Shown: piece after piece, positions 1,535 through 53,630 of the stretch
Layout of the letters: every line of letters begins with the position of its first letter
How positions within the stretch are numbered: the stretch's first letter is position 1
NCBI GenBank assembly: GCA_963818475.1
Contig: CAWFSF010000006.1
Coordinates: 384,001 to 448,000, forward strand
DNA from: Nitrospirota bacterium
GTDB taxonomy: Bacteria; Nitrospirota; UBA9217
DNA: 64,000 bases
Direction of reading: 5' to 3'
The notes under the pieces: model-generated
The model's database searches: none
What the model saw: the letters and a program-made list of their open reading frames with translations, nothing else
Told to the model about the DNA's origin: nothing
Position numbers and translations under genes: made by a program

Positions 1535-4500
1535 ATGAAAAGGATTGGCTGGTTCGGTATTGTTTGGATCGCAGCATTTTTTGTATGTGCTCTGACCGTT
1601 CACGCAGCTTGGGTGCCATCGGGATTGGAAGGGAAAAATGTTTTGTCCGTTGCTGAAGATCCGACGACGGTGACGGCATGGTTTGCGGGTACGGCAGACG
1701 GAGAACTGTATAAATCAACCGACGGCACAAACTGGGCAGTCTTAAATACGGGCATCCCTGCAGGGGCGGCGATACAAGCCATTACGATCGATCCCGTCAA
1801 TGCTGCAACGATGTACGCGGGCACTGCCGGGCAGGGCGTTTACGTATCGCTTGATGCGGGTAATACCTGGGCCGGTTCCGGACTTGCCGAAATGTCGGTA
1901 CGAAGCATAGAGATAGACCCTTACAATACTTCGATACTGTTTGCAGCCACGAACAGCGGAATATTCAAAAGCATTGATTCCGGCGTGAACTGGCAGCAAA
2001 TTACATCCGCCGCAATCGAATCCACGGATATCAGGAAAATCACTTTTAATCCGCGGGATCTGACATTAACACCCGCTCCCACACAAACGGATATTTTGTA
2101 TTCTGCGGCAACGGGCACGGGCGGTCTGTATAAAAGCACGGACGCGGGCGCGACCTGGACCAAAATCAGTACCGGGCTTTCCAGTCCAAACTTTACCACC
2201 GTCGCAGTAGATCCGAGCCAACCGGCTAATGTATATGCAGGTACAGCCGATGCGGGGATGTATAAGAGCGCAGATGCGGGCAGCACCTGGACGCAGATCA
2301 ACACCGGGCTCGGCAGTCAGAATATATTGAAGATCACCTTTTATCCTTACGGTCCCACGAGCATCCTGGTAGGGACGCAGTCTGAAGGTATTTACCGGAC
2401 GGACACATCCGGCAACAGCTGGTATGTGTGGAATAGTGGAAATGCAGCGACGAAAGTAAATGCAATAATCTTCCTTACGCCGCAGAATAGTTCGATTTTT
2501 GCGGGGACTTCCAACGGGGTGGTTTCTTTCGATAACTTAAAAGCAGATTTGGTCATAACTTCAGTCAGCACGGACGTCTCGACAGCGGAGACGGGCCAAA
2601 CGGTGACGGTGACGGCGACGGTGAAGAACCAGGGCCAGTGGGCCGCAGGCAATTTCTACGTGCCGATCTACCTGTCCACGGACAATGCGATTACGTCTTC
2701 GGACTTGTACGTGACGAATGTATCGGTGATGAGCCTTGCTGCGGGAGCGGAGGCGACGGTGACGGCCGTATTTACGGTGCCGGTGATGAACAGCGGGACG
2801 TACTACGCCGGGGCAATAGCGGACGGGGGTTTTAAAGATTACGGCGTATTGTACGGTAACAACTTCGTGACTGAGTCGGACGAGACGAACAACGCATTAG
2901 CAGGCAACATGATAACGCTTACCCGGCTGTATGCGGATCTCATCATAAAGCCGTCGTCGGTCAGCACGGACGTCTCGACAGCGGAGACGGGCCAAACGGT
3001 GACGGTGACGGCGACGGTGAAGAACCAGGGCCAGTGGGCTGCAGGCAATTTCTACGTGCCGATCTACCTGTCCACGGACAATGCGATTACGTCTTCGGAC
3101 TTGTACGTGACGAATGTATCGGTGATGAGCCTTGCTGCGGGAGCGGAGGCGACGGTGACGGCCGTATTTACGGTGCCGGTGATGAACAGCGGGACGTACT
3201 ACGCCGGGGCAATAGCGGACGGGGGTTTTAAAGATTACGACGTATTGTACGGTAACAACTTCGTGACTGAGTCGGACGAGACGAACAACGCATTAGCAGG
3301 CAACATGATAACGCTTACCCGGCTGTATGCGGATCTCATCATAAAGCCGTCGTCGGTCAGCACGGACGTCTCGACAGCGGAAACGGGCCAAACGGTGACG
3401 GTGACGGCGACGGTGAAGAACCAGGGCCAGTGGGCTGCAGGCAATTTCTACGTGCCGATCTACCTGTCCACGGACAATGCGATTACGTCTTCGGACTTGT
3501 ACGTGACGAATGTATCGGTGATGAGCCTTGCTGCGGGAGCGGAGGCGACGGTGACGGCCGTATTTACGGTGCCGGTGATGAACAGCGGGACGTACTACGC
3601 CGGGGCAATAGCGGACGGGGGTTTTAAAGATTACGACGTATTGTACGGTAACAACTTCGTGACTGAGTCGGACGAGACGAACAACGCATTAGCAGGCAAC
3701 ATGATAACGCTTACCCGGCTGTATGCGGATCTCATCATAAAGCCGTCGTCGGTCAGCACGGACGTCTCGACAGCGGAGACGGGCCAAACGGTGACGGTGA
3801 CGGCGACGGTGAAGAACCAGGGCCAGTGGGCTGCGGGCAATTTCTACGTGCCGATCTACCTGTCCACGGACAATGCGATTACGTCTTCGGACTTGTACGT
3901 GACGAATGTATCGGTGATGAGCCTTGCTGCGGGAGCGGAGGCGACGGTGACGGCCGTATTTACGGTGCCGGTGATGAACAGCGGGACGTACTACGCCGGG
4001 GCAATAGCGGACGGGGGTTTTAAAGATTACGGCGTATTGTACGGTAACAACTTCGTGACTGAGTCGGACGAGACGAACAACACGCTCGCGGGCAACACCA
4101 TAGCTATCGGCACGATCAACTCTTACTTTGTGACTCCCTTCGCAGGGGTTAATGGGGGCATCAGCCCCGCAGCGACTCAGGCAATAGATTCCGGACAAAG
4201 TACGCAGTTCACGATTACGCCGGACACAGGTTATCACATCGCCTCGGTGACCGGGTGCGGGGGTACTCTCGATGGAAGCACTTACACCACAGGCGCGATC
4301 ACGGGTGATTGCACGATCACAGCCGCGTTTGCAATCAACACGTACACGATCACTGCCGGGGCAGGACCCAACGGCACCATCGATCCCGCTGGGAATATCA
4401 CGATGAATCACGGCGAGAACCAGACCTTCGCGATTATACCCGCCGATGCCAGATATCATGTCGCCGATGTTGTGGTTGACGGCGTATCTGTCGGGCCTGT

Positions 4501-5275
4501 GACAAGTTATACGTTCACCAACGTGACCGCAAACCATACGATCTCCGCGACGTTTGCAATTAACACGTACACGATCACTGCCGGGGCAGGACCCAACGGC
4601 ACCATCGATCCCGCTGGGAATATCACGGTGAATCACGGCGAGAACCAGACCTTCGCGATTATACCCGCCGATGCCAGATATCATGTCGCCGATGTTGTGG
4701 TTGACGGCGCATCAGTCGGACCTGTGTCGAGTTACACGTTCACCAACGTGACCGCAAACCATACGATCTCCGCGACGTTTGCGATCAACACGTACACGAT
4801 CGTTGCTGAGGCCGGGGCCAATGGAAGCATCTCCCCCTACGGGAACATCACGGTGACTGACGGTGGCAGCCAGACATTCACGGTCACGCCTGCTTCGGGC
4901 TATAACATTGTTGATGTGCTGGTGGACGGGGTCTCAGTCGGGTCGGTGACTAGCTATACCTTCACAGCCGTGAATGCCGGGCATATTATCTTTGCTTCCT
5001 TTGACCGCGGGGCATCCGGTTCCTGCACGCCGACCATATCGCCCAGGAGCAGTCTATTCAATGGAGCAGGAGGCACAGGCAGTATTACCGTGAACGTGGA
5101 CAGCCAATGCGGCTGGACCGCCGCAAGCGATAACAGCTGGATAACGGTTACGAATGGAAGCGGCACAGGCAGCGCGACCCTGACTTACTCAGTCTCTGAG
5201 AACCAGACGTCGGCTCGCAGGGTCGGCACTATAACCATTTCCGGCCAGACATTTTCAGTCATGCAGCTGCGTTGA
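1535..5275 (+). CDS. Secreted modular surface protein: BNR/Asp-box (Vps10/sortilin-like) beta-propeller, 4x CARDB, InlB-B/Flg_new-like repeats, C-terminal BACON
   Basis: Signal peptide; repeated YKSTDxGxTW Asp-boxes; ADL...TVKNQG...ESDETNN CARDB units; YTITA..GPNGTI.P.G repeats; WTAASDNSWIT...R.GTITI BACON motif. Confidence 0.85.
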   Translation: MKRIGWFGIVWIAAFFVCALTVHAAWVPSGLEGKNVLSVAEDPTTVTAWFAGTADGELYKSTDGTNWAVLNTGIPAGAAIQAITIDPVNAATMYAGTAGQGVYVSLDAGNTWAGSGLAEMSVRSIEIDPYNTSILFAATNSGIFKSIDSGVNWQQITSAAIESTDIRKITFNPRDLTLTPAPTQTDILYSAATGTGGLYKSTDAGATWTKISTGLSSPNFTTVAVDPSQPANVYAGTADAGMYKSADAGSTWTQINTGLGSQNILKITFYPYGPTSILVGTQSEGIYRTDTSGNSWYVWNSGNAATKVNAIIFLTPQNSSIFAGTSNGVVSFDNLKADLVITSVSTDVSTAETGQTVTVTATVKNQGQWAAGNFYVPIYLSTDNAITSSDLYVTNVSVMSLAAGAEATVTAVFTVPVMNSGTYYAGAIADGGFKDYGVLYGNNFVTESDETNNALAGNMITLTRLYADLIIKPSSVSTDVSTAETGQTVTVTATVKNQGQWAAGNFYVPIYLSTDNAITSSDLYVTNVSVMSLAAGAEATVTAVFTVPVMNSGTYYAGAIADGGFKDYDVLYGNNFVTESDETNNALAGNMITLTRLYADLIIKPSSVSTDVSTAETGQTVTVTATVKNQGQWAAGNFYVPIYLSTDNAITSSDLYVTNVSVMSLAAGAEATVTAVFTVPVMNSGTYYAGAIADGGFKDYDVLYGNNFVTESDETNNALAGNMITLTRLYADLIIKPSSVSTDVSTAETGQTVTVTATVKNQGQWAAGNFYVPIYLSTDNAITSSDLYVTNVSVMSLAAGAEATVTAVFTVPVMNSGTYYAGAIADGGFKDYGVLYGNNFVTESDETNNTLAGNTIAIGTINSYFVTPFAGVNGGISPAATQAIDSGQSTQFTITPDTGYHIASVTGCGGTLDGSTYTTGAITGDCTITAAFAINTYTITAGAGPNGTIDPAGNITMNHGENQTFAIIPADARYHVADVVVDGVSVGPVTSYTFTNVTANHTISATFAINTYTITAGAGPNGTIDPAGNITVNHGENQTFAIIPADARYHVADVVVDGASVGPVSSYTFTNVTANHTISATFAINTYTIVAEAGANGSISPYGNITVTDGGSQTFTVTPASGYNIVDVLVDGVSVGSVTSYTFTAVNAGHIIFASFDRGASGSCTPTISPRSSLFNGAGGTGSITVNVDSQCGWTAASDNSWITVTNGSGTGSATLTYSVSENQTSARRVGTITISGQTFSVMQLR
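2564..4081 (+). repeat. Intragenic tandem repeat, 396-bp period, about 4 near-identical copies (CARDB domains)
   Basis: gtcagcacggacgtctcg recurs at 2564, 2960, 3356 and 3752 with only a few substitutions between copies. Confidence 0.95.
4328..4800 (+). repeat. Intragenic tandem repeat, 225-bp period, 2 near-identical copies
   Basis: tttgc.at.aacacgtacacgatc occurs at 4328, 4553 and 4778. Confidence 0.9.
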
Positions 5276-5352: not shown

Positions 5353-5387
5353 GAAGCGCCCTCGCTAGTCGGGGGCGCTTCTGTTTT
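5353..5387 (+). terminator. Rho-independent terminator
   Basis: gaagcgccctcg-ctagt-cgggggcgcttc followed by tgtttt. Confidence 0.7.
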
Positions 5388-5439: not shown

Positions 5440-5556
5440 TGGGCAAAAATGAGCAGGCTGTGCGCATTATCGCTCATTGCGATAGCCTTTACAGTCACTA
5501 CCATTTTAAATTATTATTGTTTTTCAATTAATTACTACTATGGCACGGGTATTGCT
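5440..5556 (+). promoter_or_regulatory. Sigma-54 promoter with upstream palindromic activator sites
   Basis: TGGCAC-GGGTA-TTGCT at 5541-5556 is a perfect -24/-12 consensus. TGCGCATTATCGCTCA is at 5461-5476, with a weaker site 21 bp upstream. IHF-like tttcaattaatta is at 5522-5534. Confidence 0.8.
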
Positions 5557-5810
5557 TAATTTACCCTACTATTGATACTTTAGTCCGTCATTGTTGAAGT
5601 TGCTGGAAAAATTCCCGCCAGAATACTGGCGAAATTGAATCCAAAAACAGAAATTATCGTGAAAGGGGGCGATAGCTGCCTGTGGCAGCAACATCATTTT
5701 CTTTAGCATGAAGGTGGCAGCTTTGTTATTTTTGATAAGGTCCGGCAAGTATTAAGGGCGGGGGATCAGAATTTTTTAGTTGTAAACTAAACCTGATAAC
5801 GAGGGAAAAA

Positions 5811-6479
5811 ATGAAAAAAATGATCGTTGTAACAGTAGCACTGGCTTTTGTGCTCTTGAGCGCCGGAGCGGCACTGGCCGCTCTCGCGGGCAGCAAGCAC
5901 GACATGAGGACCTACCTGACAGGTCAGACGGGTGGATACGACGAAGTCTGCGTCTATTGCCACACGCCGCACAGCGCATCAATGACAGCTCAGCTCTGGA
6001 ACCATACGGCTTCCTCAGTAGGTTCCTACCAGACCTATACAAACACCTGGGGAACCTTGCAATCCGTTCCAGGAACCCCCGGCAATGGGTCGCTGCTCTG
6101 CTTAAGCTGTCATGACGGCACCGTTGCTGTTGATAACCTGGTCAATCCGCCGAACAGCGGCTCCCAGGGGAGTAATGACGGCGGCGGCGAACTTAATGCT
6201 TCTAAATATATCACTTCCGGAAGAGCTTCAAATTTTAGCACCGATCTCAGGAACGACCACCCGATCGGCTTCGCGTATAACGCCTCCCTCGTAACTAACG
6301 ACGGCGGACTTGTTGATGCGAATACCGTTGGAAATAGCACCTATGTGCGTATTATCAATGGTATTGGCGGTACTGTAGAGTGTGCAACCTGCCACGATGC
6401 TCACAATACAACGGTTCCACCGTTCCTGCGGAGCTCCAACGCGGCATCAGCGCTCTGCACCCGTTGCCACACTAAGTAA
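5811..6479 (+). CDS. Tetraheme c-type cytochrome, OmcE-like (doubled CXXCH family)
   Basis: Signal peptide, then SKHD...CVYCHTPH...LWN...CLSCHDG...DLRNDHP...ECATCHDAH...PFLR...LCTRCHTK. This is the motif order I recall for Geobacter OmcE. Confidence 0.88.
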   Translation: MKKMIVVTVALAFVLLSAGAALAALAGSKHDMRTYLTGQTGGYDEVCVYCHTPHSASMTAQLWNHTASSVGSYQTYTNTWGTLQSVPGTPGNGSLLCLSCHDGTVAVDNLVNPPNSGSQGSNDGGGELNASKYITSGRASNFSTDLRNDHPIGFAYNASLVTNDGGLVDANTVGNSTYVRIINGIGGTVECATCHDAHNTTVPPFLRSSNAASALCTRCHTK

Positions 6480-6504
6480 GCAGAAGATACGAATGTTACA
6501 GTTC

Positions 6505-6534
6505 AAGAGGGGAGGAGACTCCCCTCTTTTTTTT
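6505..6534 (+). terminator. Rho-independent terminator
   Basis: aagaggggag-GAGA-ctcccctctt followed by a T tract. Confidence 0.85.
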
Positions 6535-6940
6535 GGATTATGGCAGGTCGTTTGGCGCGGCAAAAGGTACTAAAAAAGTTTTGACTTTACTGTGACGGAG
6601 TGATAATCTGCTACGCTGGGTTGTAATTGAGGCGTGTAAATGGAGTTATGAATCATCCTTAAACGTTATTGCCATTGCGATGTGGAGCAGCTTCCATAGC
6701 CCAAAGCAGGATCGGTCGGGGTAAACCAGGACACTACAGGATGCGTACGCAGCGCCCTCGTTTATCGGGGGTTGTAAGGCGGCTAATTGTAACAATTGTA
6801 CCGCGGCGCCTCGTAGAAAAAGAGTATTGGGTTATGATTTCATTTCACTCGTAGGAAGAAGTTCATACACGCCCAAGCTCCCTGTATTCCCCGTATCCAT
6901 CTCTGGTCAACTGCCGTTATCAGATTCAAGAGGAATAGAA

Positions 6941-8002
6941 ATGCCTATTCGTGCGATACTTATACTTCTGATGCTTCTCGCTGGATGCGCGACAAAAGCG
7001 CCGCAACAAGAGCTGCTCGCGTGGCCTTCGCTGCCGGCTCTGCCGCGGGTCGCCTATGTGGCGAGCTACCGGGGATCGATCGATTTTTTCAAGCCCAAGT
7101 TTTGGGATAGTATTTTGGGGAGCGACGAAGTAAGAAAAAAAGACCTCAACAAGCCCTTTGGCGTGTCTGTGTATGGCGACAGAATTTATGTTTCCGATAC
7201 AGGGTTCGGCTATGTCGCCGTGATTGACACAAAAGAACGGAAGGTGTCCTACCTCGGCGCCAGCGGGAGGGCTGTTTTGAAACAGCCCTTTGGGGTCGCA
7301 GCTGCAGCTGATGGGACGATCTATGTTGCCGACGGAAAGCAGAAAAGTATCTACGCATTTAACCAGAACGGCGAGCTCCTGTCGGCTTTTGGCGATACCG
7401 GTGAGTTCAGCAGGCCGGCAGGGATCGCTGTCAACAGCGGACTGGGAAGGCTCTATGTGTGTGATGTTGCGGCGAACGCGGTCTTTGCCTTCTCCCTTAA
7501 GGGGGAGCGACTCTTCGAGTTTAAAAAAGGGGAGGAATCCGGAGACGGGGTTTTCAATTCGCCGACCCACATTGCCATTGACCGGAGAAATGGAAATGTG
7601 CTTGTTGCTGATACAAATAATTTCAGGGTGCAGGTTTTTGACAAAGACGGTACCTACTTGAGGAAATTCGGGCAGCTGGGCGACGGTCCCGGAGATTTCA
7701 GCAGGCCCAAGGGCATCGCTGTCGACTCCGAAGGCCATGTTTATGTGGCAGATGCGGCTTTTAATAATTTCCAGATATTCGATGACATGGGCCGGCTGCT
7801 GCTGACCGTAGGGCAACTGGGCAACGGAGCTGGAAATTTTCTACTGCCTGGCGGCATGTATATTGACGGTCAAGACAGGATCTATGTCGCTGATACCCTT
7901 AACAGGAGGGTCGAGGTGTTTCAATACATGAGCGATTCCTGGCAGCTGGCGCATCCTGAGGAGTTCAAAAAATACCTGCTTCCCGATACTGTGGCAGAGT
8001 GA
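6941..8002 (+). CDS. NHL-repeat (6-bladed beta-propeller) lipoprotein
   Basis: RBS gagga before ATG 6941; lipobox LAGC; repeated F..P.GIAVD..G.IYVAD..N.R.QVFD units. Confidence 0.88.
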   Translation: MPIRAILILLMLLAGCATKAPQQELLAWPSLPALPRVAYVASYRGSIDFFKPKFWDSILGSDEVRKKDLNKPFGVSVYGDRIYVSDTGFGYVAVIDTKERKVSYLGASGRAVLKQPFGVAAAADGTIYVADGKQKSIYAFNQNGELLSAFGDTGEFSRPAGIAVNSGLGRLYVCDVAANAVFAFSLKGERLFEFKKGEESGDGVFNSPTHIAIDRRNGNVLVADTNNFRVQVFDKDGTYLRKFGQLGDGPGDFSRPKGIAVDSEGHVYVADAAFNNFQIFDDMGRLLLTVGQLGNGAGNFLLPGGMYIDGQDRIYVADTLNRRVEVFQYMSDSWQLAHPEEFKKYLLPDTVAE

Positions 8003-8053
8003 CAGGTTCTCGCCACCTGAAGAGGTTGAAACTCTTGTGCTGCATATCCGCTA

Positions 8054-8081
8054 GTAGAGGCGGGTTTAAAACCCGACCCTC
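8054..8081. repeat. GTAG-type REP-like palindrome
   Basis: gtagaggcgggtttaaaacccgaccct lies in the gap between the NHL and PPIase genes. Confidence 0.45.
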
Positions 8082-8124
8082 CCTTCTGTCCATTTTTTGC
8101 GCCTGGTGTCGGGACTGGGGTAGT

Positions 8125-9045
8125 ATGAATAAATTATTATTAGTACTTATCATGCTTTTTTATGCGTTCCCACTGCAGGCCGACGGCAATGTGGTTGCAA
8201 GGGTTAACGGTGCTGCAATTTACTCGTTGCAGCTTGATATTGCTGTGCGTCAGCTTATCACCACCTCTACATTTCATGGGAGTCTTTCTGATGAAAAACG
8301 CCATGAATTCCAGGAACAGGCCCTTCAGGATCTTATCATCCGCGAACTGAAATATCAGGATGCAGTGGCTCGAGGATTTAATCCTGATAAAAATCTGGTA
8401 AAAACAAAGATAGCGGAAATTAAGAACAAATTTAATTCTGGAAAGGAATATAGAAAAGCGCTGTCCGAAGCAGGGCTTTCGGAAGACGATATACGCTCAG
8501 ATGTGGAAAAGAACCTTGTTATCGAAGGCGCGATCAATAAAATCGTAGTGGACGCGGCACGCTGGAATGATGCCGAGCTCAAGGCGTACTACGATTCGAA
8601 TGCCGATAAATTTACGCAACCGGAAAGCGTAAAACTGAGGATCATATCGTGTGCGGCTGAAAAAAAAGCAGCTGAGGCGTTGACCTTGATACGTTCAAAC
8701 GAAGCTTTTGGTGCGGTCGCAGCCAAAATGTCCGAGGATAATTATCGGACAAGGGGGGGCGATATCGGATATATTCATCGGGACAGGATCTACCCGGAGC
8801 TGGAAAACGAAGCTTTCAGGATGAAGCCGGGAGAGGTGAGCGGTCTGATACGCGCTGAAGGAATGTGGTTCATCATCAAGGTCGAAGAGAAAATCCCCGA
8901 GCGCCGGATCGCATTCGAGGAGGCAAAGGATAAACTCAAAAAAGAGCTCGAGGCAAGACGTTCCACTGAGATGCTCGAGAAATGGAGCCAGGAACTCAGG
9001 GCAAAGGCAAAGATAGAAATTCTGCTTAACAACGAAAAAAAATAA
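8125..9045 (+). CDS. Periplasmic peptidyl-prolyl isomerase/chaperone (SurA-N + PpiC/parvulin)
   Basis: Signal peptide from ATG 8125; VVARVNG..I; F..VA.KMSED.....GGDIG; AF.MKPGEVS..I....WFIIKV. Confidence 0.88.
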   Translation: MNKLLLVLIMLFYAFPLQADGNVVARVNGAAIYSLQLDIAVRQLITTSTFHGSLSDEKRHEFQEQALQDLIIRELKYQDAVARGFNPDKNLVKTKIAEIKNKFNSGKEYRKALSEAGLSEDDIRSDVEKNLVIEGAINKIVVDAARWNDAELKAYYDSNADKFTQPESVKLRIISCAAEKKAAEALTLIRSNEAFGAVAAKMSEDNYRTRGGDIGYIHRDRIYPELENEAFRMKPGEVSGLIRAEGMWFIIKVEEKIPERRIAFEEAKDKLKKELEARRSTEMLEKWSQELRAKAKIEILLNNEKK

Positions 9046-9156
9046 AAGAGGTACCTGGCGGCGAATGAATTATCTTATGGCGAAAGCAGGCGTAACCCCT
9101 CATATTTAGTATCCCTCCCCAATAAATTCTCCTTCTGTATGGTTCGTGCTCTATGG

Positions 9157-9258
9157 TGAGCGAATGTGCGCACGACGTTGCATTTCCCATTGATTAGTAA
9201 TGATAACTAATTGAAATGTAATAAAAATTTTACGGCTATTATAGGCATGTTAATTGCT
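9157..9258 (+). promoter_or_regulatory. Sigma-54 promoter with upstream palindrome
   Basis: AGGCAT-GTTAA-TTGCT at 9243-9258; TGAGCGAATGTGCGCA at 9157-9172; IHF-like site at 9204-9216. Confidence 0.65.
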
Positions 9259-9292
9259 TGTATATCTATAGTAGAAATACTGCGACTACATC

Positions 9293-11220
9293 GTGAAAGT
9301 TATGTGCTTGTATAAAATATTATATAAAATATTATATTTATCAATAATTTCCGTTCTTCTTCTTGGACCGGGACGCGCAGATGCTTATCGCGTTTCAGGC
9401 TTAGCAGCATTTACCTATACTGTTGATGAGTCTCGAACAGGAGATCGGAAAACTTCTTCACATTATTTTACCCAGGATTATAACGTCGGGTTCCAAAATC
9501 ATATCTGGGATCCGCGGTTTCTAAGATTTCACGCGGGAATCGGATATAACGTTATCACTGGTTCGACTGAAAACAAAAGCCTGACTTATGACCTTGGTAT
9601 GAACTTCTTCAGTGGCATGATGATATCCTGGAACTTGTTCGATAGAAAATCTACAAGCAAGGTGTCGACCAGAGGAAATGACTACGATCTAATGACGAGT
9701 TCCTATGGCGGATCCTTGGACCTTAATCTCAGCCGCATGGCAGGGCGGCGAAGGAATAATAACAACAACAACAACAACAACAACAATAACAACAACAATA
9801 ACTTTAATAATAACATAACAATAATAACAACAACAACAATAATAATAACAACAATAACAACGGAAGCCGGTTCCGTTTCCCTCTCCCTGATATTGAACTT
9901 TCCTTCGGACATGTTGAGTCTGAAGCACAGAATGCGCTGAATCCGATCCGTGAATCGCGTGACAACGCTGGCCTGTCTATGAAATACCGCTTTACTTCAC
10001 GGGGCGATCTGAACATAGGTCAGACCGTGGAAACGTATAAGAACTTCATTACCGGAGGAACCTATGATACGAAGTCCACGGACTTTTCATCAAAAATTCT
10101 TGTGTCCCCTGGTGCTGACCTGGTGGTGAGTGGCAACCGGCTTGACCGGACAATCACGGGCATTCCCGGGTTTGGTGCTGATAAAAGATTGCAGTCCAAG
10201 GTAGCCCTTAATTTTAAGGAGCGGGAAGGAATATCGTATGGCTACACGTATGACTTCAGCGATTCTCAGACGCCCAGCGATGAACTGACCCGCCACGATG
10301 CCGCGGCCACGGTGTCGTACCTGATCAATAGTGACCTGTCTTTGCGCGGAAACCTCAATTATAGCGTAGCGGACTATTTCATCAAAGCCACGGAAGAGAG
10401 ACAGAACCTGGAGACCGGAGGTGCTCAGACTGGGGTGGCCTACCGGAAAATCCATACGCCGGATTTTCTCGGGCCATTTGTAATGGACACTAATTATGGA
10501 TTCAATACGGGCTATTCGAAGGTCACTGGCCAGGTCAGTGAGGATACGGGGGGAGGCCTGTATTATGAAAACACCGCGGGTCTCTTATTCACGAGCAAGG
10601 GATGGACAAAGGATAGATTGTCCGCGGGTTACAATATCTCCAGCAAAAGAGACCGGTCGCCTCTTAGTAACAATGCCCGGCGGGAGAATTTTAGATTTGA
10701 TGCTTCCACATTCCGGATTCCTCAGACAACCGTGCAAGCCAATATCTCCTATAGTTCCATCGAAAATAGCAGTGCCGCCAACTATAGTGAGTTGATATAT
10801 GGATATCAAAAAAATCCGATTGCCGAACGCAGAGATCTTACCTACCAGGTGACCGCGCTTTACCTGGTCTCGCCTTCCCTGAACATTGATGTCGGAGCCT
10901 CGAAACAGCGTACTTCGGACGCTGCCTCACTTTCTACCTTGCAGCCTACTAATGCAGCGATGATCGAACAACTGGCATATATTGGCGCCCACTATGTAAA
11001 TGCTATTAGCCGCAGTCTGGTGTACCGGGCAGATGTCCGTGATGAATTCCGAAGCACATCCGGGGAAAGAATAGAAAGACGCAATGTCGAAATGAACCTC
11101 GATTACCGCATCAGGCAGGTTCTGGTAAATTTTAAATACCGCTGGAACGCGTCGATGCCTGACAACGGTCTTACTACCTACGTGCAGAGCTATTATGTGA
11201 AATTGTCGAGGCCGTTCTAA
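9293..11220 (+). CDS. Outer-membrane beta-barrel protein, split by a 1-nt deletion at about 9815 inside a poly-Asn tract
   Basis: Signal peptide, alternating Tyr/Phe-rich beta-strands and a C-terminal beta-signal YYVKLSRPF. ORFs 9293-9940 and 9979-11220 join if aac-at-aac at 9812-9819 is restored to aac-aat-aac. Confidence 0.75.
9755..9861 (+). repeat. (AAC/AAT)n trinucleotide tract encoding about 35 Asn
   Basis: 107-nt run of aac/aat triplets with one ttt codon and one missing base. Confidence 0.95.
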
Positions 11221-11568
11221 GGAGAGTGCTCGCATCGCTCCAACAAGCAAGCATGTCGTTGCCGATCCGGCATCCGCTGAGGATCAGCAGAAACATTATC
11301 CTTTGGGTCCTGTTTACATGTGAGATAGGGCTTCCGGCAGACATCATTATATTGCCACCTCAATGCCTCCCGCATCCTGCGAACGTATAAGGCGTTTTCC
11401 GATTACTGACAGCACTTTCATCGCCTGAGCAATGCTGGCATGCGCCGGTTATATTCGTTCGAGCACATGGTAGATATAGGCTTCCAGGCGTATCTCAAGT
11501 GTGGATAACGACGGATTGTTCCTTGTACAAAGGCTTCACTTTGGCGGGAATGTGGGTGAATAAACGGG

Positions 11569-12327
11569 ATGATCCACGGAAAAAAACTCATTGTTGTCAT
11601 GCCTGCCTATAACGCGGAAAAAACGCTTCGGCAGACCTATGCGGAGCTGCCTCATGAGTATGTTGATGAGGTCATTCTGGTGGATGATGCCTCCGGGGAT
11701 AATACGACCACGGTTGCCCATGATCTTGGCATCACCACAATCGTGCATGCTGAAAACAGAGGATACGGTGCAAACCAGAAGACCTGCTATCGGGAGGCGC
11801 TGAAGCTGGGCGCTGACATCGTGGTGATGGTCCACCCCGATTATCAGTATTCACCTCGGCTGGTAACCGCCATGGCATCCATGATCACTTCGGGGCATTA
11901 TGATGTTGCACTGGGATCAAGGATCCTGTGCGGCGGGACCTGGCAGGGAGGAATGCCCCTGTACAAATATATAGCCAATCGTTTTCTCACGCTGGTCGAG
12001 AACGTGATGCTCGGCATCAAATTATCCGAGTTCCATACCGGCTACCGCGCCTTCAGCCGGAAAGTGCTCCTTGCTCTGCCCTTAGGGGAAAATTCCGATG
12101 ATTTTGTTTTTGATAACGAGATGCTTGCCCAGTCGGTATACCGGGGGTTCAGGATCGGCGAGATAAGCTGTCCCACGAAATATTTTGACGATGCTTCCTC
12201 GATCTCGTTCACGCGCAGCGTTCACTACGGATTCGGTGTCCTGGGGACGTCGGGAAAATTTGTGCTTCAGAAGCTCGGTCTCGCAAAATTTGCCCTGTTT
12301 AGCAGCACCGGGAAAAAACTGTGCTGA
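11569..12327 (+). CDS. GT2 glycosyltransferase, polyprenol-phosphate mannose synthase-like
   Basis: [34 protein letters not shown] and HTGYRAF motifs. Confidence 0.9.
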
Positions 12328-16395: not shown

Positions 16396-16627
16396 GAGCA
16401 GGCCGGCAAGCGCCTTATCGGCAGAGCAGACCAGCGTGTTCTTTCTGAACTCAGCAGTCCCCCTGTCCGTCTCACCTCACTCATCTGATACCAAATTCCG
16501 CCAAGCCGACTGACGCAAATCAGATGATGGCTTGCTGTAAGATAGCTGAGAAACCTCTTGTTTGTCAAGAGAATTAATCATATCAGGAACTTGCTTTTGC
16601 AGTATCTTTTTGGTATTCTGCCCTACC

Positions 16628-18808
16628 ATGACGACGCGGCAAAAAGAACAGCAGACGGGGTTCAAGGCAGTGCTCTACCTTCTGGGGTTCATGTTCTTGA
16701 CCGCGGTCGCCGTAGTGCTGCAGCTCAGGTTCAGGGGGTTTGAAGGACCCCTCTCGGACAGCCTCCTCATTATCGTCCTGATCAATGCCAATTTCCTGCT
16801 GCTGGCGGCGGTCATCGTCATGATCGCCCGCAGTCTCTGGAAACTGTCGATCGAGAGGAAGCAACGGGTGCTGGGGGCCAGGTTCAGGACCAAGCTGGTC
16901 ACCGCCTTCGTCAGCCTGTCGTTCATTCCGCCGGTCCTGCTGTTCATCATCGGCAGCGGCATGTTCACCAGCAGCATCGAGCGGCTCTTTAACCTCAGGA
17001 TCGAGAACTCGCTCAAAGCCTCCCGTTCCGTTGCCCAGGCATATTACGACCTCCTCGATAAAAAGGCGCTCGCCTTCGGCAGGGAGATCAGCAGGCAAAT
17101 GGCTGAGGAACAGCTGCTGAACCGCTTTGAACGGCCGGTGCTCAAGGAGTATCTTGCCCGCAAAGCGGCCGAGTACGACCTGGGCGGGATCGAGCTCATT
17201 ACCGCCTCCCGTGAACGGGCGGTTACCGTTGTTACGGGACAATTCCCGGCGAAAACGTTCAGCGCCACTTCCTCCGAGCTGGCCGCGCAGGCATTATCCG
17301 GCAGGCCCGCCTCCGGCATCATCGAGTTGGGGAGGCGGGGGCAGATCGTACGCACCGTGGTCCCGCTCCGTGCCTCCGCCGAGGACCGTCAGGTGACGGC
17401 GCTGATCAGCATCAGCTACTATGTACCCGAGAACCTTGCATCAAAAGCGGCTGAGAGCAGCACAGGATATTCGCAATACCGGGCGCTGCGGACCGAAAAG
17501 GAACCGATCAAGCTGGCCTATCGGCTCGGGTTTCTCGCGGTAACGCTGTCCCTGCTTCTCGCCGCCATCTGGGTCGCGCTCCGCGTGGCGGCCGGAATCA
17601 CCGTTCCGATCCAAAAGCTGGCCGAAGGGACGGCTGCAGTAGCAGCCGGCCGGTTCGATTACCACATCGACGAAGCGCCGGGAGACGAGGTCGGGGTACT
17701 GATCAACTCATTCAACAAAATGACGAGCGACCTGAAGCATTCCCGGGAGCGCCTGGAGCAGGAGGTCGCGTACAAGGAAACCATCCTTTCGAACATCGAT
17801 ACCGGTGTTGTGTCCATGGACCGCGCCGGCCGGATCACCACCATCAATCGGGCTGCCTCGGACATTCTGAGCGTCCAGGATCAGGATGTACTCTTCAAAC
17901 GATATGACGAGGCTTTCAGCTTTATCGAACTGGGACCGGTGCGCACGTTGTTCAGCAGACTTGAGAAAGGGCCGGGCCAGGCGGAGGAGGAACTGTCGCT
18001 GACAGTGCGCGGCAGGGTCCTGACGCTCCGCATGAGGGTCACGATGCTGCGGGACAGCGGCGGGGCGCTGGTCGGATCGGTCATCACCTTTGACGATCTG
18101 ACGGAGCTGCTCAGGGCGAAAAAGGCGGAGACCTGGCAGGATGTGGCCCGCAGGATCGCTCACGAGTTTAAAAATCCGCTCACTCCCATCAAGCTCTCGG
18201 CCGAACGCCTGCGGAAAAAACATGCCGAGGGCGCTGCGGATTTCGATGCGGTTTTCGATGATTGCAGCCGCACAATCGTTCAGGAAGCAGATGCTCTGCG
18301 AAAGTTGGTCGATGAGTTCGCGAACTTTGCCCGGATGCCGAGTTCGAATCCTGTGCCGCAGCCGCTCCACCTGGTCCTGGAGAGCGTCATATCGCTTTAC
18401 GCCGGTGCGCATAAGGACATCTCCTTTGTGAGCCGGTTCCAGGCCGATATGCCCGATGTGCTGCTGGACCGGGAGCAGGTGAAGCGGGTGTTCATCAATC
18501 TCTTCGAAAATTCCGTTGAGGCCATGGGCGGCAAGGGCACGATCTGGATCACGACGGCCATGAACGCCTCGGGCAGGGCGCTGGTGGAGGTAGCGGACAG
18601 CGGGCCCGGCATCGCGCCCGAGGATGTCCCGCGGGTGTTCGAACCGGATTTCTCCCGGAAGAAAAAGAATGGCGGTCTCGGGCTGGCCATCGTGCACAAG
18701 ATCATCGCCGACCACGGCGGCTCGATCCGTTTTGAGCAGAACACACCAAGGGGTGCACGCTTTATTATAGAACTCGCTGTCAGGGACAGGGAAGTTCAGA
18801 GTTCATAG
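16628..18808 (+). CDS. ntrY: NtrY-like sensor histidine kinase (TM, HAMP, PAS, HisKA, HATPase)
   Basis: GARFRTKLV..F, HAMP (PI.KL...DEVG.L...FN.M), H-box ARRIAHEFKNPLTPI, N box NLFENS, G boxes DSGPGI and GLGLAI. Confidence 0.85.
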   Translation: MTTRQKEQQTGFKAVLYLLGFMFLTAVAVVLQLRFRGFEGPLSDSLLIIVLINANFLLLAAVIVMIARSLWKLSIERKQRVLGARFRTKLVTAFVSLSFIPPVLLFIIGSGMFTSSIERLFNLRIENSLKASRSVAQAYYDLLDKKALAFGREISRQMAEEQLLNRFERPVLKEYLARKAAEYDLGGIELITASRERAVTVVTGQFPAKTFSATSSELAAQALSGRPASGIIELGRRGQIVRTVVPLRASAEDRQVTALISISYYVPENLASKAAESSTGYSQYRALRTEKEPIKLAYRLGFLAVTLSLLLAAIWVALRVAAGITVPIQKLAEGTAAVAAGRFDYHIDEAPGDEVGVLINSFNKMTSDLKHSRERLEQEVAYKETILSNIDTGVVSMDRAGRITTINRAASDILSVQDQDVLFKRYDEAFSFIELGPVRTLFSRLEKGPGQAEEELSLTVRGRVLTLRMRVTMLRDSGGALVGSVITFDDLTELLRAKKAETWQDVARRIAHEFKNPLTPIKLSAERLRKKHAEGAADFDAVFDDCSRTIVQEADALRKLVDEFANFARMPSSNPVPQPLHLVLESVISLYAGAHKDISFVSRFQADMPDVLLDREQVKRVFINLFENSVEAMGGKGTIWITTAMNASGRALVEVADSGPGIAPEDVPRVFEPDFSRKKKNGGLGLAIVHKIIADHGGSIRFEQNTPRGARFIIELAVRDREVQSS

Positions 18809-26417: not shown

Positions 26418-26505
26418 TATTAACATTGCAACAATCATAAAAGGGCAATAGTTGTATGACGATAAATTGCTCTTTAAGTAGTTGAATTTATTTAGGAGTA
26501 TTGAA

Positions 26506-27261
26506 ATGTCAAGAAAAAGCATGCTGGTTAATCTGATGATAATATGTTTTATGTTTACCTTCTCAGGTATGGCTTCCGGTGGCACTATTGCCGGCAGCAA
26601 GCATGACTTTTCGAAGAACGAATTGCCAATTGTAACCTATTTTGCCGGAAACTTCACGTCCGGAGGTGATGAAATCAGAGAGACGTGCGTGTTCTGCCAC
26701 ACCCCGCATGCTGCTTCGACAGCGGTGACAGGGTTTCTCTGGAACCGGACCGGTTCTTCTGTGGCTAACTATGATATGTACACCAGCACAACGCTTTCCG
26801 TCGTCCCTGACTCGAGGCCGACCGGCTTGACGCTTATGTGCATGAGCTGTCATGACGGCGTAACCTCCATAGCGGTTGGAACGCTTATAAATGCGCCCGG
26901 GGCAGGCCCTGTTGACCTGGTCGCTCCTGGTGCCTATCAGTTTATCGGCGAGATTTACTACCCCAGTCCTTTTTTCGGTGGTGAATGGCAGGCGAATATC
27001 GGCAACCTTACCCCGGATGGCACCTTCGGCACGAGGGCGAACCTTAGTGATGACCACCCGGTATCGTTTACGTGGAATAATAATGTCCCCGGCATTTTCG
27101 ATCCAGGCGAGTGGACGGGAGTTGGTGCGACAGCGCTCAAACTTTTTAATAACAGGATGGAATGCTCCACGTGTCACAATGTGCATGATAACACAAACGC
27201 GCCTTTTTTAAGGATGTCGAATGCTGATAGCGCTATGTGCACAACGTGCCACGACAAGTAA
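26506..27261 (+). CDS. Tetraheme c-type cytochrome, OmcE-like (paralog of 5811)
   Basis: RBS aggag; signal peptide; IAGSKHD...CVFCHTPH...LWNR...CMSCHDG...DDHPVSF...ECSTCHNVHDNTNAPFLR...MCTTCHDK. Confidence 0.88.
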   Translation: MSRKSMLVNLMIICFMFTFSGMASGGTIAGSKHDFSKNELPIVTYFAGNFTSGGDEIRETCVFCHTPHAASTAVTGFLWNRTGSSVANYDMYTSTTLSVVPDSRPTGLTLMCMSCHDGVTSIAVGTLINAPGAGPVDLVAPGAYQFIGEIYYPSPFFGGEWQANIGNLTPDGTFGTRANLSDDHPVSFTWNNNVPGIFDPGEWTGVGATALKLFNNRMECSTCHNVHDNTNAPFLRMSNADSAMCTTCHDK

Positions 27262-27317
27262 CGACGGCTTCGGTGAAACTGGGCGATCCTGATTTTAAAG
27301 CTACCTCGGAGGTGTGT

Positions 27318-30056
27318 ATGAACCGGAAAAGATATCTGATGGTCGCAGTTATCCTGGCAGCATTGTTTTTTCTCCTGTCGGGTGCCGGCTATGCAGCCCC
27401 TGCGCTAATCGGTGCTATTACGGATACTGTGTATCGTCCGGCATGCCTCGCCATAGATTCCCAGGGAAACCTCTATGTGTCCGAGACGTCGAACGATATG
27501 TTTAAGGTTTATAATCGAAAAGGCAAGCTGCTTAAACAGTTCTCGGTCCAGCGTCCGATGGGTGTGGCGGTGGACGCCTCCGGATATATCTATATAGGAT
27601 CGGCAACCAGGGGCGCTGTTGATATTTATGCTCCGGATTACAAATATGTACGCAGTCTTGGCGCGGGCCAGGGCGAAATCGTCCGGCCGATGTCCATTGC
27701 CGTTGACGGCGGAAAGGTGTACGTCCTTGACAGCGACACAAGCATGGTCCGTATCTACGATTCGTCAACAGCTCAGTTCCTGTTCAGCTTCGGCGGCAGC
27801 GGCAGCACGGACGGTCTTTTTAACGTGCCAACTGCCGTTGCCGTAAATGACGCTACGAACGAGATCTTTGTTGCCGATCTTCGGAAGACACTGGATAGTA
27901 CCGGCGTACTCATCAATGGCGCAAAAATACAGGTATTTGACAAGGCGGGCGCATTCAAGAGATCTTTTGGTACTTACGGTTTCGAGGCGGGAAAGATCGG
28001 CAAACCGGTAGGCCTGGCTTTGGATGGTTCCGGCAATATTTTTATTTGCGACCTTATTCAGGGCGCGGTCCTTTCCTTTGATGCGGCAACAGGAGCGTTC
28101 AACAATACCGCACTCTATAAAGCTGAAAGCTCGAAGCCCCTGGGCGTAGCAATCGGAAAAAACAAGATCGCTTATGTATCGTTAGCGAACTACCTCAGGA
28201 GTATTGACGTCTACGGTCTTGATGGATTCACGACCATGGATGAGGCGCCGGCCGCCCTGACCTTCGAAAGCAAACAGCTGACCGCGAACGCCGAAGCCCA
28301 GACTGTCACGATCACCAACACGGGAAATGGTTCTTTAGGATGGACCGCAGCGGCTGATAGCAACTGGATAACATTGGGTGCCGCGAGCGGGACCGCAGGC
28401 CCGAACAGCACGAGCAGCCTTGCCATTGGTACGAATAACGCGGACCTGACGGCCGGCACGTACCAGGGCGTGGTAACGGTAACGTCTGATTTCGGCCAGA
28501 TAGACAGGATTCCCGTAACGTTTACGGTAACTCCTGCGGCAACGATCGGCTTCAGCAATGGATCGGTCGCGGTTGCCGCCAAAAAGGGCAAAACGCCCGA
28601 TGCTCAACCAATAACGATCACGGTACAGAATGCAGAATCGCTGCCGTGGTCCGCTTCCTCTGATTCCTCCTGGCTTCTCATTTCCCCGGCCAATGGCACG
28701 GCAACCGCAGCATCAGCTCTCTCTATTAATATGGCGGGTGTCAATCCCGGAACGCATACCGGCCATATCACGCTTTCCGCGCCGACTGCCATAGGAGACG
28801 GCAGCAAGATGACCGTCACCCTCACGGTGACCGCAGGTACGAAGATCAGCGTGGCTTCGAACATTCCGGAGGCCAGGTTTACCGTCGTAAGCACAGCCGC
28901 TACCTATACGGGCTCCGGCGTGGCATGGAGCGTCGAGGACGTTCCGCTGGGAGATTACACTGTTACCTTTGATGCGGTAAGCGGATATCGGAAGCCCCTT
29001 GCCCAAACAAAAAGCCTGACTGATACGGAAATTGCACTGTCGGGAAACTACCGTTCTCATGCCGATATCGCAAGCCGCACGAATATCATTGTCGGCAAAG
29101 GCGCGCATCCGAACAATGACTCCAGGGTCAGGATATACAGGAACGACGGCGCCCCGGCTGCTGATATCATGGCTTTCGGTTTGGACAGCAGATTCGGGAC
29201 CAATGTAACATCAGCTGATATCGACGGAGATGGGATTGCAGAGCTTATCGCGGAAAGCGGCGCTGGTGCGGACAAGCCATCCGTTGTGCGAGTGCTCAAA
29301 TCCGATGGAACAACGCTGGTTGAGCTTGCGCCCTTTACTGCGCCCGGCAGGGCCAATGTGGCCGCAGGTGATCTGAACGGCGATGGCAGGGCGGAGCTCG
29401 TGGTCGCCCCGGCGGATAATGATATGAACGCCTTGGTCAAGGTGTATACCTACAGGGCGGACACGAAGGAGATGGTGGCAACGGGGATCGAGCTTACCGC
29501 TCTTGGATACGATCAGGCGGTAGCGGTTGCCGTTGCGGATACCGACGGCAGTCCTGCGTCGAAGCTCGTTACCGCGTCTCATATGGTTATGAGCGTCTGG
29601 ACGATCGATGCCTCGAAGGGCGTCGGAAGCTGGTCAGCCTCACTCATGAATGATTTTAAAATCCTCGGCAGAGGCAACAAGGTTTCGCTCTCGGCCGGCG
29701 ATATTGATGGTGACGGCAGGGATGAACTTATTGCCGGCGATGGGGCAGGTGTGGCCAATGCCTCATCATCGAATGCGCCATCAGGGGTCATGATCTTCAA
29801 AACCGATGGCGCCATGGCGGGGAATTTTGCTCCCGCCGCTAACTTCCCGAACGGGATGAGCGTGGCGGCAGCCGACCTGACCGGCGATGGTATCGCTGAA
29901 GTGATCGTCGGTTCCGGGGTGGATCAGCGCACTGGAGGACGTAAATCTTCAAGCGTCATGATATTTGACGCGTCAGGAAAGCTTTTGAATACCATAACGC
30001 CCGACGCAAGTTCGCAAAGCGGTCTGAACGTCACGGTTGGAGAGATGGGATTATGA
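27318..30056 (+). CDS. Secreted protein: NHL beta-propeller, 2x BACON-like, PEGA-like, FG-GAP repeats
   Basis: RBS ggagg; signal peptide; NHL repeats; WTAAADSNWIT and WSASSDSSWL; repeated ADIDGDG..ELI / AGDLNGDG. Confidence 0.85.
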   Translation: MNRKRYLMVAVILAALFFLLSGAGYAAPALIGAITDTVYRPACLAIDSQGNLYVSETSNDMFKVYNRKGKLLKQFSVQRPMGVAVDASGYIYIGSATRGAVDIYAPDYKYVRSLGAGQGEIVRPMSIAVDGGKVYVLDSDTSMVRIYDSSTAQFLFSFGGSGSTDGLFNVPTAVAVNDATNEIFVADLRKTLDSTGVLINGAKIQVFDKAGAFKRSFGTYGFEAGKIGKPVGLALDGSGNIFICDLIQGAVLSFDAATGAFNNTALYKAESSKPLGVAIGKNKIAYVSLANYLRSIDVYGLDGFTTMDEAPAALTFESKQLTANAEAQTVTITNTGNGSLGWTAAADSNWITLGAASGTAGPNSTSSLAIGTNNADLTAGTYQGVVTVTSDFGQIDRIPVTFTVTPAATIGFSNGSVAVAAKKGKTPDAQPITITVQNAESLPWSASSDSSWLLISPANGTATAASALSINMAGVNPGTHTGHITLSAPTAIGDGSKMTVTLTVTAGTKISVASNIPEARFTVVSTAATYTGSGVAWSVEDVPLGDYTVTFDAVSGYRKPLAQTKSLTDTEIALSGNYRSHADIASRTNIIVGKGAHPNNDSRVRIYRNDGAPAADIMAFGLDSRFGTNVTSADIDGDGIAELIAESGAGADKPSVVRVLKSDGTTLVELAPFTAPGRANVAAGDLNGDGRAELVVAPADNDMNALVKVYTYRADTKEMVATGIELTALGYDQAVAVAVADTDGSPASKLVTASHMVMSVWTIDASKGVGSWSASLMNDFKILGRGNKVSLSAGDIDGDGRDELIAGDGAGVANASSSNAPSGVMIFKTDGAMAGNFAPAANFPNGMSVAAADLTGDGIAEVIVGSGVDQRTGGRKSSSVMIFDASGKLLNTITPDASSQSGLNVTVGEMGL

Positions 30057-50137: not shown

Positions 50138-50245
50138 GACTTATACTATATACAAATTATCAGGTTTCGTCCAATGATTTTTCCCACACGTTTTTTATTT
50201 GACAATAGCAGGCGATTCCTTTAATTTGTAGCATTGCTCTTCTCT

Positions 50246-52889: not shown

Positions 52890-53630
52890 ATGTTGCGCAC
52901 AAGAATGGTTTGGATAATCGCGGTTGCGATACTTCTTTTTTTCCTTGCTACAACGTTCTTCCTGGACCTCAAAGGGCGGAGCGCAAGGTCTTACGGTGAA
53001 CGAGTCCATGATGTTTCGGAAACCCAATTGCCGGTGACCATGATCGCCAGTTCGGGAGAATTGTATCGTCTTTATAAATCCCGCGGTGTGCAGGGAAGGC
53101 TTTTGGTACATATCGGAACGCACCTGCATTTCGTCGACGGCAATGATGACAAAGGACCTTTTTCGCCGCTGCCCCGTCCAGACGCTTTGGGCGTTCTCCA
53201 CGCATACGAACAACGGATAGACTATACTAATGTGTTCTGGGTGGCGATGCAGGCGAATATCGTTCGCGGAATTTATTACGTTTTGCCGGACCAGGTATAT
53301 CAGGAAATAAGAAAGGCGGCGCGCGAGGACGACTTTGATATTGCTTACATGGATACGGAACGTATTGTGGCCCATGAATGGGGTTTCCGCCGCGAAATTT
53401 CCAATTCAATCCCCGTTCTTCCCGAACCGGTGCTGTTGAACATTGACGCCTCGGTGTTCGAGTATCGGGAAGTGTCCGATATCCTTCGCATGGTTAAGCA
53501 GTCGCGCTTGAAAGCCGATCTTATTACGGCGAACCTGTCGGAGGACAGCCCGGACGTATCGCCGGCAAGCAGGGGGAAAATGAGGTTGTTCATATCGCTC
53601 TTGACCGGGGGGGGCAGTGGAAAACAATAA
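52890..53630 (+). CDS. Hypothetical exported protein (possibly UPF0489/arginase-like fold)
   Basis: N-terminal TM; GRLLVHIG.H, IVRGIYYVLP, VLLNIDAS and ADLIT motifs; paralog of 60121. Confidence 0.65.
   Translation: MLRTRMVWIIAVAILLFFLATTFFLDLKGRSARSYGERVHDVSETQLPVTMIASSGELYRLYKSRGVQGRLLVHIGTHLHFVDGNDDKGPFSPLPRPDALGVLHAYEQRIDYTNVFWVAMQANIVRGIYYVLPDQVYQEIRKAAREDDFDIAYMDTERIVAHEWGFRREISNSIPVLPEPVLLNIDASVFEYREVSDILRMVKQSRLKADLITANLSEDSPDVSPASRGKMRLFISLLTGGGSGKQ

Follow-up and report, generated by a model that had tools for sequence, protein, structure and literature searches.

A reduced OmcE/Uet-type cluster for extracellular electron transfer, with a split barrel-like gene, in a Nitrospirota contig

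Within a 64-kb stretch of a Nitrospirota contig (CAWFSF010000006.1; hereafter the window), we analysed five genes that, in the list of open reading frames (ORFs), all run in one direction between positions 5400 and 12400 (coordinates are those of the window, + strand). They encode a tetrahaem c-type cytochrome, an NHL beta-propeller lipoprotein, a parvulin-type chaperone–isomerase, a barrel-like protein, and a GT2 glycosyltransferase, and constitute a reduced member of the widespread OmcE/Uet clusters for extracellular electron transfer—a kind of locus already published and not new. From homology, gene linkage, and the layout of transcription signals, we give even chances to the reading that the cytochrome would be the subunit of a secreted OmcE-type wire, exported with a chaperone's help via the barrel and polymerised outside the cell.

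The first gene (5811..6479, +) encodes a predicted OmcE/UetA-like protein of 222 residues that opens with a hydrophobic signal peptide and carries four CXXCH motifs (at residues 47, 97, 191, and 216) and nine histidines in total. Pfam returned generic multihaem signatures only (Paired_CXXCH_1, 5e-11), and a search of all PDB chains placed 9yuq_N first (E 2.3e-34, residues 1–222 against 1–218) and 7tfs_A second (E 7.8e-28, end to end). With reference to PMC9473688 and PMC12307469, we take 7TFS to be the OmcE filament of G. sulfurreducens. Beyond these two entries, five more PDB sequences appeared at E ≤ 10, the best of them a reaction-centre cytochrome at E 0.0036; the protein hence belongs beside the subunits of OmcE filaments and apart from other tetrahaems, and the label 'OmcE-like' given to it in an initial annotation of this DNA holds along the full length of both filament proteins. 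9YUQ is the OmcE bundle of D. soudanensis (PMC13712944). In an alignment of 27 sequences, H30, H51, H54, H101, H150, H195, H198, and H220 were invariant (27/27), as were all eight cysteines, and the four distal histidines (H30, H54, H150, and H198) align with histidines in both 9YUQ and 7TFS. By its sequence, the cytochrome is homologous from end to end to the two solved subunits of OmcE filaments, with all eight predicted haem-ligating histidines in place.

Its relatives are numerous and keep recurring company. At E ≤ 1e-5 the family comprises 1896 proteins, the best non-self match being 68% identical. Species-representative genomes hold at least 633 relatives, and the best 80 of these define 77 loci, of which two overlap on one contig and many end at contig edges. 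Searching these loci with phmmer and the window proteins, together with an iterated profile seeded on the barrel of the closest locus, we found an NHL protein in 73, a member of the barrel family in 52, a parvulin in 11 (two of them weak matches 3 kb away), and the GT2 protein in one. Most often, the tetrahaem gene is followed by NHL, barrel, and NHL genes, in that order, and then by one for a cytochrome of ~580 residues with 11 CXXCH motifs. In the closest locus (L001, a Nitrospirota metagenome-assembled genome [MAG]), which is also the one with the GT2 gene, the cytochrome is 66% identical, the same five genes stand in the same order, and the flanks match those of the window (TPR, OmpA-like, and aminotransferase genes). 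For the barrel and for the parvulin alike, the named close relatives all come from Nitrospirota or Nitrospiraceae MAGs; the nearest relatives of this genome are Nitrospirota MAGs.

The signals around the cytochrome gene set it apart from the genes that follow. A sigma-54 type –24/–12 promoter, TGGCACGGGTATTGCT (5541..5556, +), matches the consensus and is kept in L001, in line with the perfect sigma-54 promoter claimed in the initial annotation. Nowhere else in the 64 kb is TGGCAC-N5-TTGCW matched exactly; allowing up to one mismatch yielded 6 sites against 2.47 expected, a count that 6 of 100 shuffles reached and that is not significant. The candidate promoter is supported by its conservation in L001, not by the number of sites. 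Upstream lies an inverted repeat, AATGAGC-N17-GCTCATT (5448..5478, +), which is a candidate sigma-54 activator site, followed by an AT-rich IHF-like stretch, and this arrangement is kept in L001 as well. Among related tetrahaem and pentahaem genes, 7 of 81 carry the consensus TGGCAY-N5-TTGCW within 450 nt upstream (0.0036 expected per 450 nt), and these seven are 7 of the 9 matches in 1.11 Mb of related loci. The window ORFs scanned include no sigma-54 activator gene; an AtoS/ZraS-like kinase is encoded at 16562–18808. Three near-identical one-mismatch sigma-54-like strings on the – strand between 33959 and 36413 (two TGGCACCGGCATTGTA, one TGGCACCAGCATTGTA) reflect the internal repeats of a giant cytochrome gene and are not promoters.

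From the –12 element to the ATG, 254 nt intervene, and the leader is about 245 nt long, so that the long leader of the initial annotation is real. This region (5557..5810, +) contains a hairpin, GCTGCC-TGT-GGCAGC, that is kept in L001 along with the surrounding block; the leader folds at –67.4 kcal/mol (z = –2.5), and an Rfam scan of it returned no family. Reading by eye, we also saw a short ORF in the leader (5709–5756; ~9871–9924 in L001) for a hydrophobic peptide of 15–17 residues, which has no obvious ribosome-binding site and may mean nothing. Downstream of the gene, a predicted intrinsic terminator (6505..6536, +) combines a GC-rich stem of ten pairs (6505–6528) with a run of eight T; its hairpin folds at –19.7 kcal/mol (z = –3.1) and is identical in L001, so that 'strong' was a fair description. 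The tetrahaem gene is predicted to be transcribed by itself, between a sigma-54 promoter and a strong terminator that are both conserved. Past the terminator, a sigma-70-like element (TTGACT, 17 nt, TG-n-TAATCT; 6581..6609, +), with hexamers read from the sequence in a block kept in L001, might give the accessory genes a promoter of their own; the evidence is weak, and the element is missing from the scan list.

The terminator recurs across the family. A terminator-like hairpin with a T-run lies 3′ of 27 of 88 related tetrahaem genes, of 2 of 110 NHL genes, and of 1 of 47 genes with at least nine haems; the counts come from a crude ad hoc scan, which was not calibrated as a predictor, yet they differ widely. 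Terminators that follow tetrahaem genes and only rarely NHL genes are what one would expect if the cell needs far more of the tetrahaem than of the accessory proteins. This pattern fits a major-subunit role of the tetrahaem, and with it the expectation, already voiced in the initial annotation, of an abundant structural subunit.

The second and third genes are the NHL lipoprotein and the parvulin of that annotation. The NHL protein (6941..8002, +; 353 aa), a lipoprotein of outer-membrane type, starts MPIRAILILLMLLAGC, in which we read a lipobox, LLAGC; it matches Pfam NHL at 1e-32, and among PDB entries it comes closest to the six-bladed NHL propeller of TRIM71 (1e-58). An N-terminal linker, P-x-x-P-x-x-x-R, is conserved: among 41 relatives encoded after a tetrahaem gene, the lipobox Cys is present in 88%, and P29, P32, and R36 in 100, 100, and 93%. 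We also considered this protein as a donor of a haem-ligand His or Met and rejected the idea, since neither residue is conserved (maximum 14%, 41 class-A relatives). The parvulin (8125..9045, +; 306 aa), a predicted periplasmic SurA-N/parvulin chaperone–isomerase similar to UetB, has a signal peptide and matches Rotamase_2 (7e-21) and SurA_N_3 (7e-13), its nearest solved proteins being Cbf2, SurA, and PrsA. In its N-terminal chaperone domain, one histidine, His51 (8275–8277, with M1 at 8125), does not vary: it is present in 10 of 10 parvulins linked to a cluster (21–71% identity) and in 120 of 120 closest database homologues. A comparison of this domain with solved structures gave one weak match, which does not cover the position of His51.

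The fourth gene, for a product of roughly 640 aa, belongs to a large unnamed barrel-like family, in which a barrel fold is suggested by several indirect features. The protein has a signal peptide, a C-terminal aromatic residue (...SRPF), and no Cys, and is rich in Ser, Asn, Thr, Gly, and Tyr; its maximal hydropathy over 19 residues is 0.80, which argues against a membrane helix, and it contains 18 amphipathic segments of period 2, against 5.3 ± 2.4 (maximum 12) in 200 shuffles. Its look-alikes in the ESM Atlas, which serve as leads only, are unnamed or are labelled as outer-membrane barrel families (scores 0.93–0.98). A 57-member profile of the family retrieves 4776 cluster representatives at E ≤ 1e-3, of which 2117 at E ≤ 1e-30. 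Four of the 57 members have sporadic sub-threshold matches to Omp85, OMP_b-brl, or Porin_4, none of the 57 matches MtrB_PioB, and the family profile finds no second barrel elsewhere in the window. Fourteen of the 57, all outside the Nitrospirota subfamily, reach a best E of 6e-9 against NCBIfam NF052337, 'phage tail tube protein'; these matches, which the window and L001 proteins lack, probably reflect a soluble domain inserted in the barrel. The gene is followed by the GT2 gene (11569..12327, +; same position in L001), whose product is like polyprenyl-phosphate-sugar synthases and resembles the PpgS, AglJ, and dolichyl-phosphate hexose transferase models, each below its cut-off.

Two published gene sets resemble the cluster most closely. 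The neighbour types that the initial annotation had tied to nanowire loci—propeller, isomerase, and barrel—are associated with such loci in print. The first is the uet cluster of 'Candidatus Tenderia electrophaga' (Tenderiales), which likewise combines a predicted extracellular tetrahaem with an isomerase, a large barrel, and NHL propellers. Eddie et al. 2022 (bioRxiv 10.1101/2022.05.06.490989) describe uetA as the tetrahaem, uetB as the peptidyl-prolyl isomerase (PPIase), uetC as the barrel, uetDEG as trihaems, uetF as a cupredoxin, uetH/I as NHL proteins, and uetJ as an undecahaem. The Tenderia UetC is predicted to form 28 strands around a pore of ~5 nm (bioRxiv 10.1101/2022.05.06.490989), and Hoover et al. 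found the uet set in six Gallionella genomes (PMC10734462). Among our related loci, the uet order, c7 trihaems included, is present in L047, L050, and L062 and in the Gallionella locus L058. When these uet-order loci, and not the Tenderia proteins themselves, are compared with the window, homology extends over the uetABC core: the tetrahaem is 35% identical (L058), the PPIases align, and hhalign pairs the window barrel family with the ORFs in uetC position at 98.5% probability (E 4e-15, 532 columns). The window order corresponds to uetA, NHL, uetB, uetC, and GT2, and differs from uet in that the NHL gene stands between 'uetA' and 'uetB', GT2 follows the barrel, and the barrel has a poly-Asn insert and is split. 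Neither trihaem c7 proteins (UetD/E/G) nor the cupredoxin UetF are found among the ORFs at 5811–12327.

The second is the OmcE cluster of Geobacter and Desulfuromonas. It shares with the window the full-length homology of the subunit with its ligands kept and the linkage of a propeller lipoprotein to a large barrel, and, in the wider neighbourhood, glycosyltransferases and ccs/resB genes such as PMC13712944 reports for Geobacter. The published minimal OmcE cluster has two extra multihaem cytochromes and two propellers, whereas the window has one propeller, no extra cytochrome, a parvulin, and H65 in place of Arg. Petersen et al. 2026 (PMC13712944) list homologues with such neighbours in five phyla, Nitrospirota included, treat the barrel as a putative secretion pore or anchor, and discuss an analogy to chaperone–usher systems; the word 'isomerase' occurs 0 times in that paper. 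Since the usual second NHL protein and the 11-haem cytochrome are missing here, 'minimal', as the initial annotation had it, is a fair word for the module.

Other systems are alike in outline. The osc cluster of G. sulfurreducens has been proposed to fold (OscH) and secrete (OscE/F/G) OmcS (PMC13194489, citing Shen et al. 2025), and resembles the window by gene type, with its isomerase-type OscH, its secretion set OscE/F/G, and a filament cytochrome; its subunit OmcS is a hexahaem unrelated in sequence to OmcE (PMC9473688). A prolyl isomerase is also required for OmcZ wires (bioRxiv 10.64898/2026.07.18.739370). With chaperone–usher pili (Pap, Fim, CupE), the likeness is one of analogy: an excess subunit encoded before a terminator, a periplasmic chaperone, an outer-membrane barrel, and no ATPase in the cluster, as well as a subunit completed by part of its neighbour, where in the present case a His–Fe bond would replace the beta-strand. 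No PapD-like chaperone and no FimD/PapC-type usher family appeared among the matches of the five cluster proteins. Of the suggestion that the module works like a chaperone/usher pathway, the analogy—already drawn in PMC13712944—therefore stands, and homology does not. Finally, the MtrAB-type porin–cytochrome systems also have a large barrel encoded beside multihaem cytochromes and serve to carry electrons through the outer membrane, but the window cluster differs from them in having neither an MtrB_PioB match nor a cytochrome of ~10 haems.

How might such a reduced set build a wire? In the secreted OmcE-type reading, the cytochrome would be exported by Sec and receive its haems in the periplasm, where the parvulin chaperone would keep it competent for assembly. 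It would then traverse the large barrel or be held in it, and the propeller lipoprotein would dock at the periplasmic face of the barrel. Outside the cell, subunits would polymerise head to tail, and each would lend one His to complete a haem in the adjoining subunit, the arrangement known from OmcE. The terminator would raise the subunit mRNA far above that of the accessory genes, as it does for major pilin genes. Electrons may flow along the wire either out to minerals or in from a donor.

Several observations weigh against this reading. The ninth histidine of the cytochrome, H65 (6003–6005, in the motif L-W-N-H), is replaced by Arg in both 9YUQ and 7TFS, and because H65 sits where the solved filament formers carry Arg, polymerisation becomes less certain. 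Petersen et al. propose that a four-haem relative with nine histidines could be an anchor and not a polymerising subunit (PMC13712944), and the same paper warns that OmcE-like tetrahaems are widespread and that perhaps only some of them form wires. The window cluster has no counterpart of the undecahaem UetJ, which could link periplasm and wire (no window ORF has 11 CXXCH; ORFs with at least two carry 4, 4, 8, 8, and 48, and apart from the cluster's own tetrahaem none adjoins the cluster), and it has a single NHL propeller where uet has two (UetH and UetI). The barrel family profile has no match among PDB sequences, Pfam and NCBIfam hold no fitting model (0 families for the L001 barrel), and the barrel gene is interrupted by a frameshift in an (AAC)34 tract. 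Moreover, the uet literature interprets the same parts as a porin–cytochrome conduit.

That published model, which the initial annotation overlooked, describes Uet as an MtrAB-like conduit for electron uptake (bioRxiv 10.1101/2022.05.06.490989). Applied to the window, the barrel would form an MtrB-like sheath and the tetrahaem would be fixed and non-polymerising, possibly taking up electrons, with the propeller stabilising the complex and the isomerase only aiding folding; we regard it as possible, though on balance doubtful. It draws strength from the loci with exact uet order among the relatives (L047, L050, L062, and L058) and from a quick tree, in which all 10 PPIase-linked cytochromes and both tetrahaem paralogues of the window fall on one side of a branch (approximate likelihood-ratio test, aLRT, 97), grouping with iron-oxidiser and Sulfurimonas loci; the same tree contains a clade of 47 rows, with loci from Bacteroidota, Calditrichota, and Gammaproteobacteria, 0 of them PPIase-linked. 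However, the closest solved relatives of the subunit are polymers, the terminator contrast between tetrahaem and NHL genes (27/88 against 2/110) argues for an excess subunit and not for a 1:1 complex, the undecahaem and trihaems on which the conduit model relies are missing from the window, and the barrel does not match the MtrB_PioB family. Eddie et al. themselves allow that one component might polymerise (bioRxiv 10.1101/2022.05.06.490989).

A different objection is that the locus may be inactive in this genome, and it turns on the reading frames of the barrel gene. The 5′ piece (9293/9302..9940, +) encodes the signal peptide and ~170 homologous residues, then runs through poly-Asn into an Ile/Thr nonsense sequence and stops at 9938–9940. 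The 3′ piece (9814..11220, +) comprises 468 open codons—poly-Asn followed by 452 residues—and ends ...KLSRPF at 11220. The 5′ piece is out of frame after ~9808, and the frame changes at ~9808–9814, within an (AAC)n tract of 34 units (9761..9861, +). In L001 the barrel is an uninterrupted ORF of 646 aa, whose residues 2–184 match the 5′ piece at 60% identity and residues 169–647 the 3′ piece at 55%; both pieces also match a family profile built without them (E 2e-20 and 8e-26). The barrel of the initial annotation is thus present, but not as one intact gene. Among 17 non-self relatives of the 3′ piece, 15 are full length (616–665 aa) and two are C-terminal fragments. The nine full-length relatives that we inspected are uninterrupted and have an Asn-rich tract of variable length in the same place, the window tract being the longest if read through; the tract is missing from the wider barrel family.

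Because the gene is frameshifted, either the record contains an error or the pathway is currently off. A real frameshift would make the barrel a fresh pseudogene or a hypervariable-repeat switch, with no export, an outcome that we take seriously without expecting it. For it speak the two frames with their stop, the full-length state of 15 of the 17 relatives, all nine inspected being uninterrupted, and the varying tract length. On the other hand, both pieces are clean, with no further stops, and farther downstream the repeat goes on encoding Asn in the frame that the 3′ piece uses; low-complexity tracts are prone to errors of assembly and base calling, and triplet repeats normally slip in frame. 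The split would go back either to a mutation of very recent date or to a mistake in the low-complexity tract. We also considered that the Asn tract might serve programmed frameshifting or phase variation, and gave this a low probability, as there is no homopolymer slippery site. An Rfam match of the AAC repeat (9815–9894) to the CrcZ sRNA, at 25.6 bits against a gathering score of 95, is in our view a spurious effect of low complexity.

The extra histidine invites yet another interpretation, in which the 5811–6479 cytochrome is a cap, an anchor, or a self-satisfied monomer whose H65 completes its own haem, while a paralogue would form the wire via the same barrel. That paralogue, a second OmcE-like tetrahaem (26482–27261; 259 aa, 38% identical to the first), has exactly eight histidines and L-W-N-R, like 9YUQ and 7TFS, and the window offers both proteins one barrel only; the anchor proposal of Petersen et al. 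for proteins with nine histidines and four haems (PMC13712944) points the same way. Arg at this position is found in both solved filaments, in the paralogue, and in most N-terminal modules of the undecahaems. Nevertheless, His is the commonest state, in 50 of 77 locus tetrahaems, single-tetrahaem loci included, and in 85 of 120 top homologues, and as such is no mark of a rare specialised subunit. It is also the first cytochrome that carries the strong promoter and terminator expected of an abundant part, and we consider a cap quite unlikely. That the cytochrome is an ordinary periplasmic tetrahaem carrier with unrelated neighbours is very improbable: tetrahaems are common in the periplasm and the Pfam matches are generic only, but NHL and barrel genes accompany it in 73 and 52 of 77 loci from many phyla, and its similarity to OmcE is specific and full length.

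A bolder extension of the wire reading, which we think unlikely to be right in full, is that the four genes would form a self-sufficient, ATP-independent outer-membrane pathway that assembles haem filaments by 'donor-histidine exchange'. A placeholder His, be it the subunit's own H65 or His51 of the parvulin, would cap the open haem until, at the barrel, the next subunit replaced it with its own N-terminal His, and the Uet and OmcE clusters would be one ancient multi-phylum system with the undecahaem as base or adaptor. The 11-haem cytochromes of canonical clusters consist of a complete OmcE-like N-terminal module (query residues 3–222, E 1e-30 to 1e-39) plus seven haems, and they could be base, adaptor, anchor, or tip subunits able to co-polymerise. 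Examples are L020:15568–17271, L003:5580–7331, and L013:4304–6025, in which the N-terminal His of x-K-H-N/D is included.

The Discussion of PMC13712944 names as an open question the passage of cytochrome nanowires through the outer membrane and their polymerisation. The stripped cluster—subunit, propeller, isomerase, and barrel—is intact and in the same order in L001, and is a small candidate set for reconstitution. Its reduced content speaks for a role of the undecahaem, the trihaems, and the second propeller in electrical connection and not in assembly. The comparison also joins two literatures in which homologous gene sets are named uet, for an electron-uptake conduit, and OmcE, for a secreted wire; in the literature searched, UetA and OmcE occur together in no paper, save one review that has OmcE only in the title of a reference. 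The terminator that follows the tetrahaem gene across the family is, in turn, a simple and testable argument for the stoichiometry of a polymer.

Several neighbouring genes deserve mention. Upstream of the cluster, 1535–5275 encodes a secreted protein of 1246 aa with a BNR/sortilin propeller, four CARDB domains (three of them near-identical tandem copies), InlB-type repeats, and a BACON domain; the gene has its own terminator (5353–5381). We considered this protein as a part of the module and rejected it, since the gene is missing between the same flanks in L001. The second tetrahaem gene is followed by one for a 939-aa NHL/BACON/FG-GAP protein (27237–30056) and, after that and up to 38422, by one for a 2789-aa cytochrome with 48 CXXCH and 15 CXXXXCH motifs. 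Further along, the 40653–61993 neighbourhood holds many envelope and cytochrome functions, with several TPR proteins, a carbamoyltransferase, and two GDSL/AlgX-like proteins. It also includes two cytochromes with 8 CXXCH each (46504–48915 and 50234–51067), ResB-like and CcsA-like genes for cytochrome c biogenesis (System II; 54978–57237), and two PMT_2/GT39-like glycosyltransferases (53617–54843 and 60710–61993). This neighbourhood recalls the glycosylation genes reported beside Geobacter omcE and the ccsAB–nrfG genes reported beside uet.

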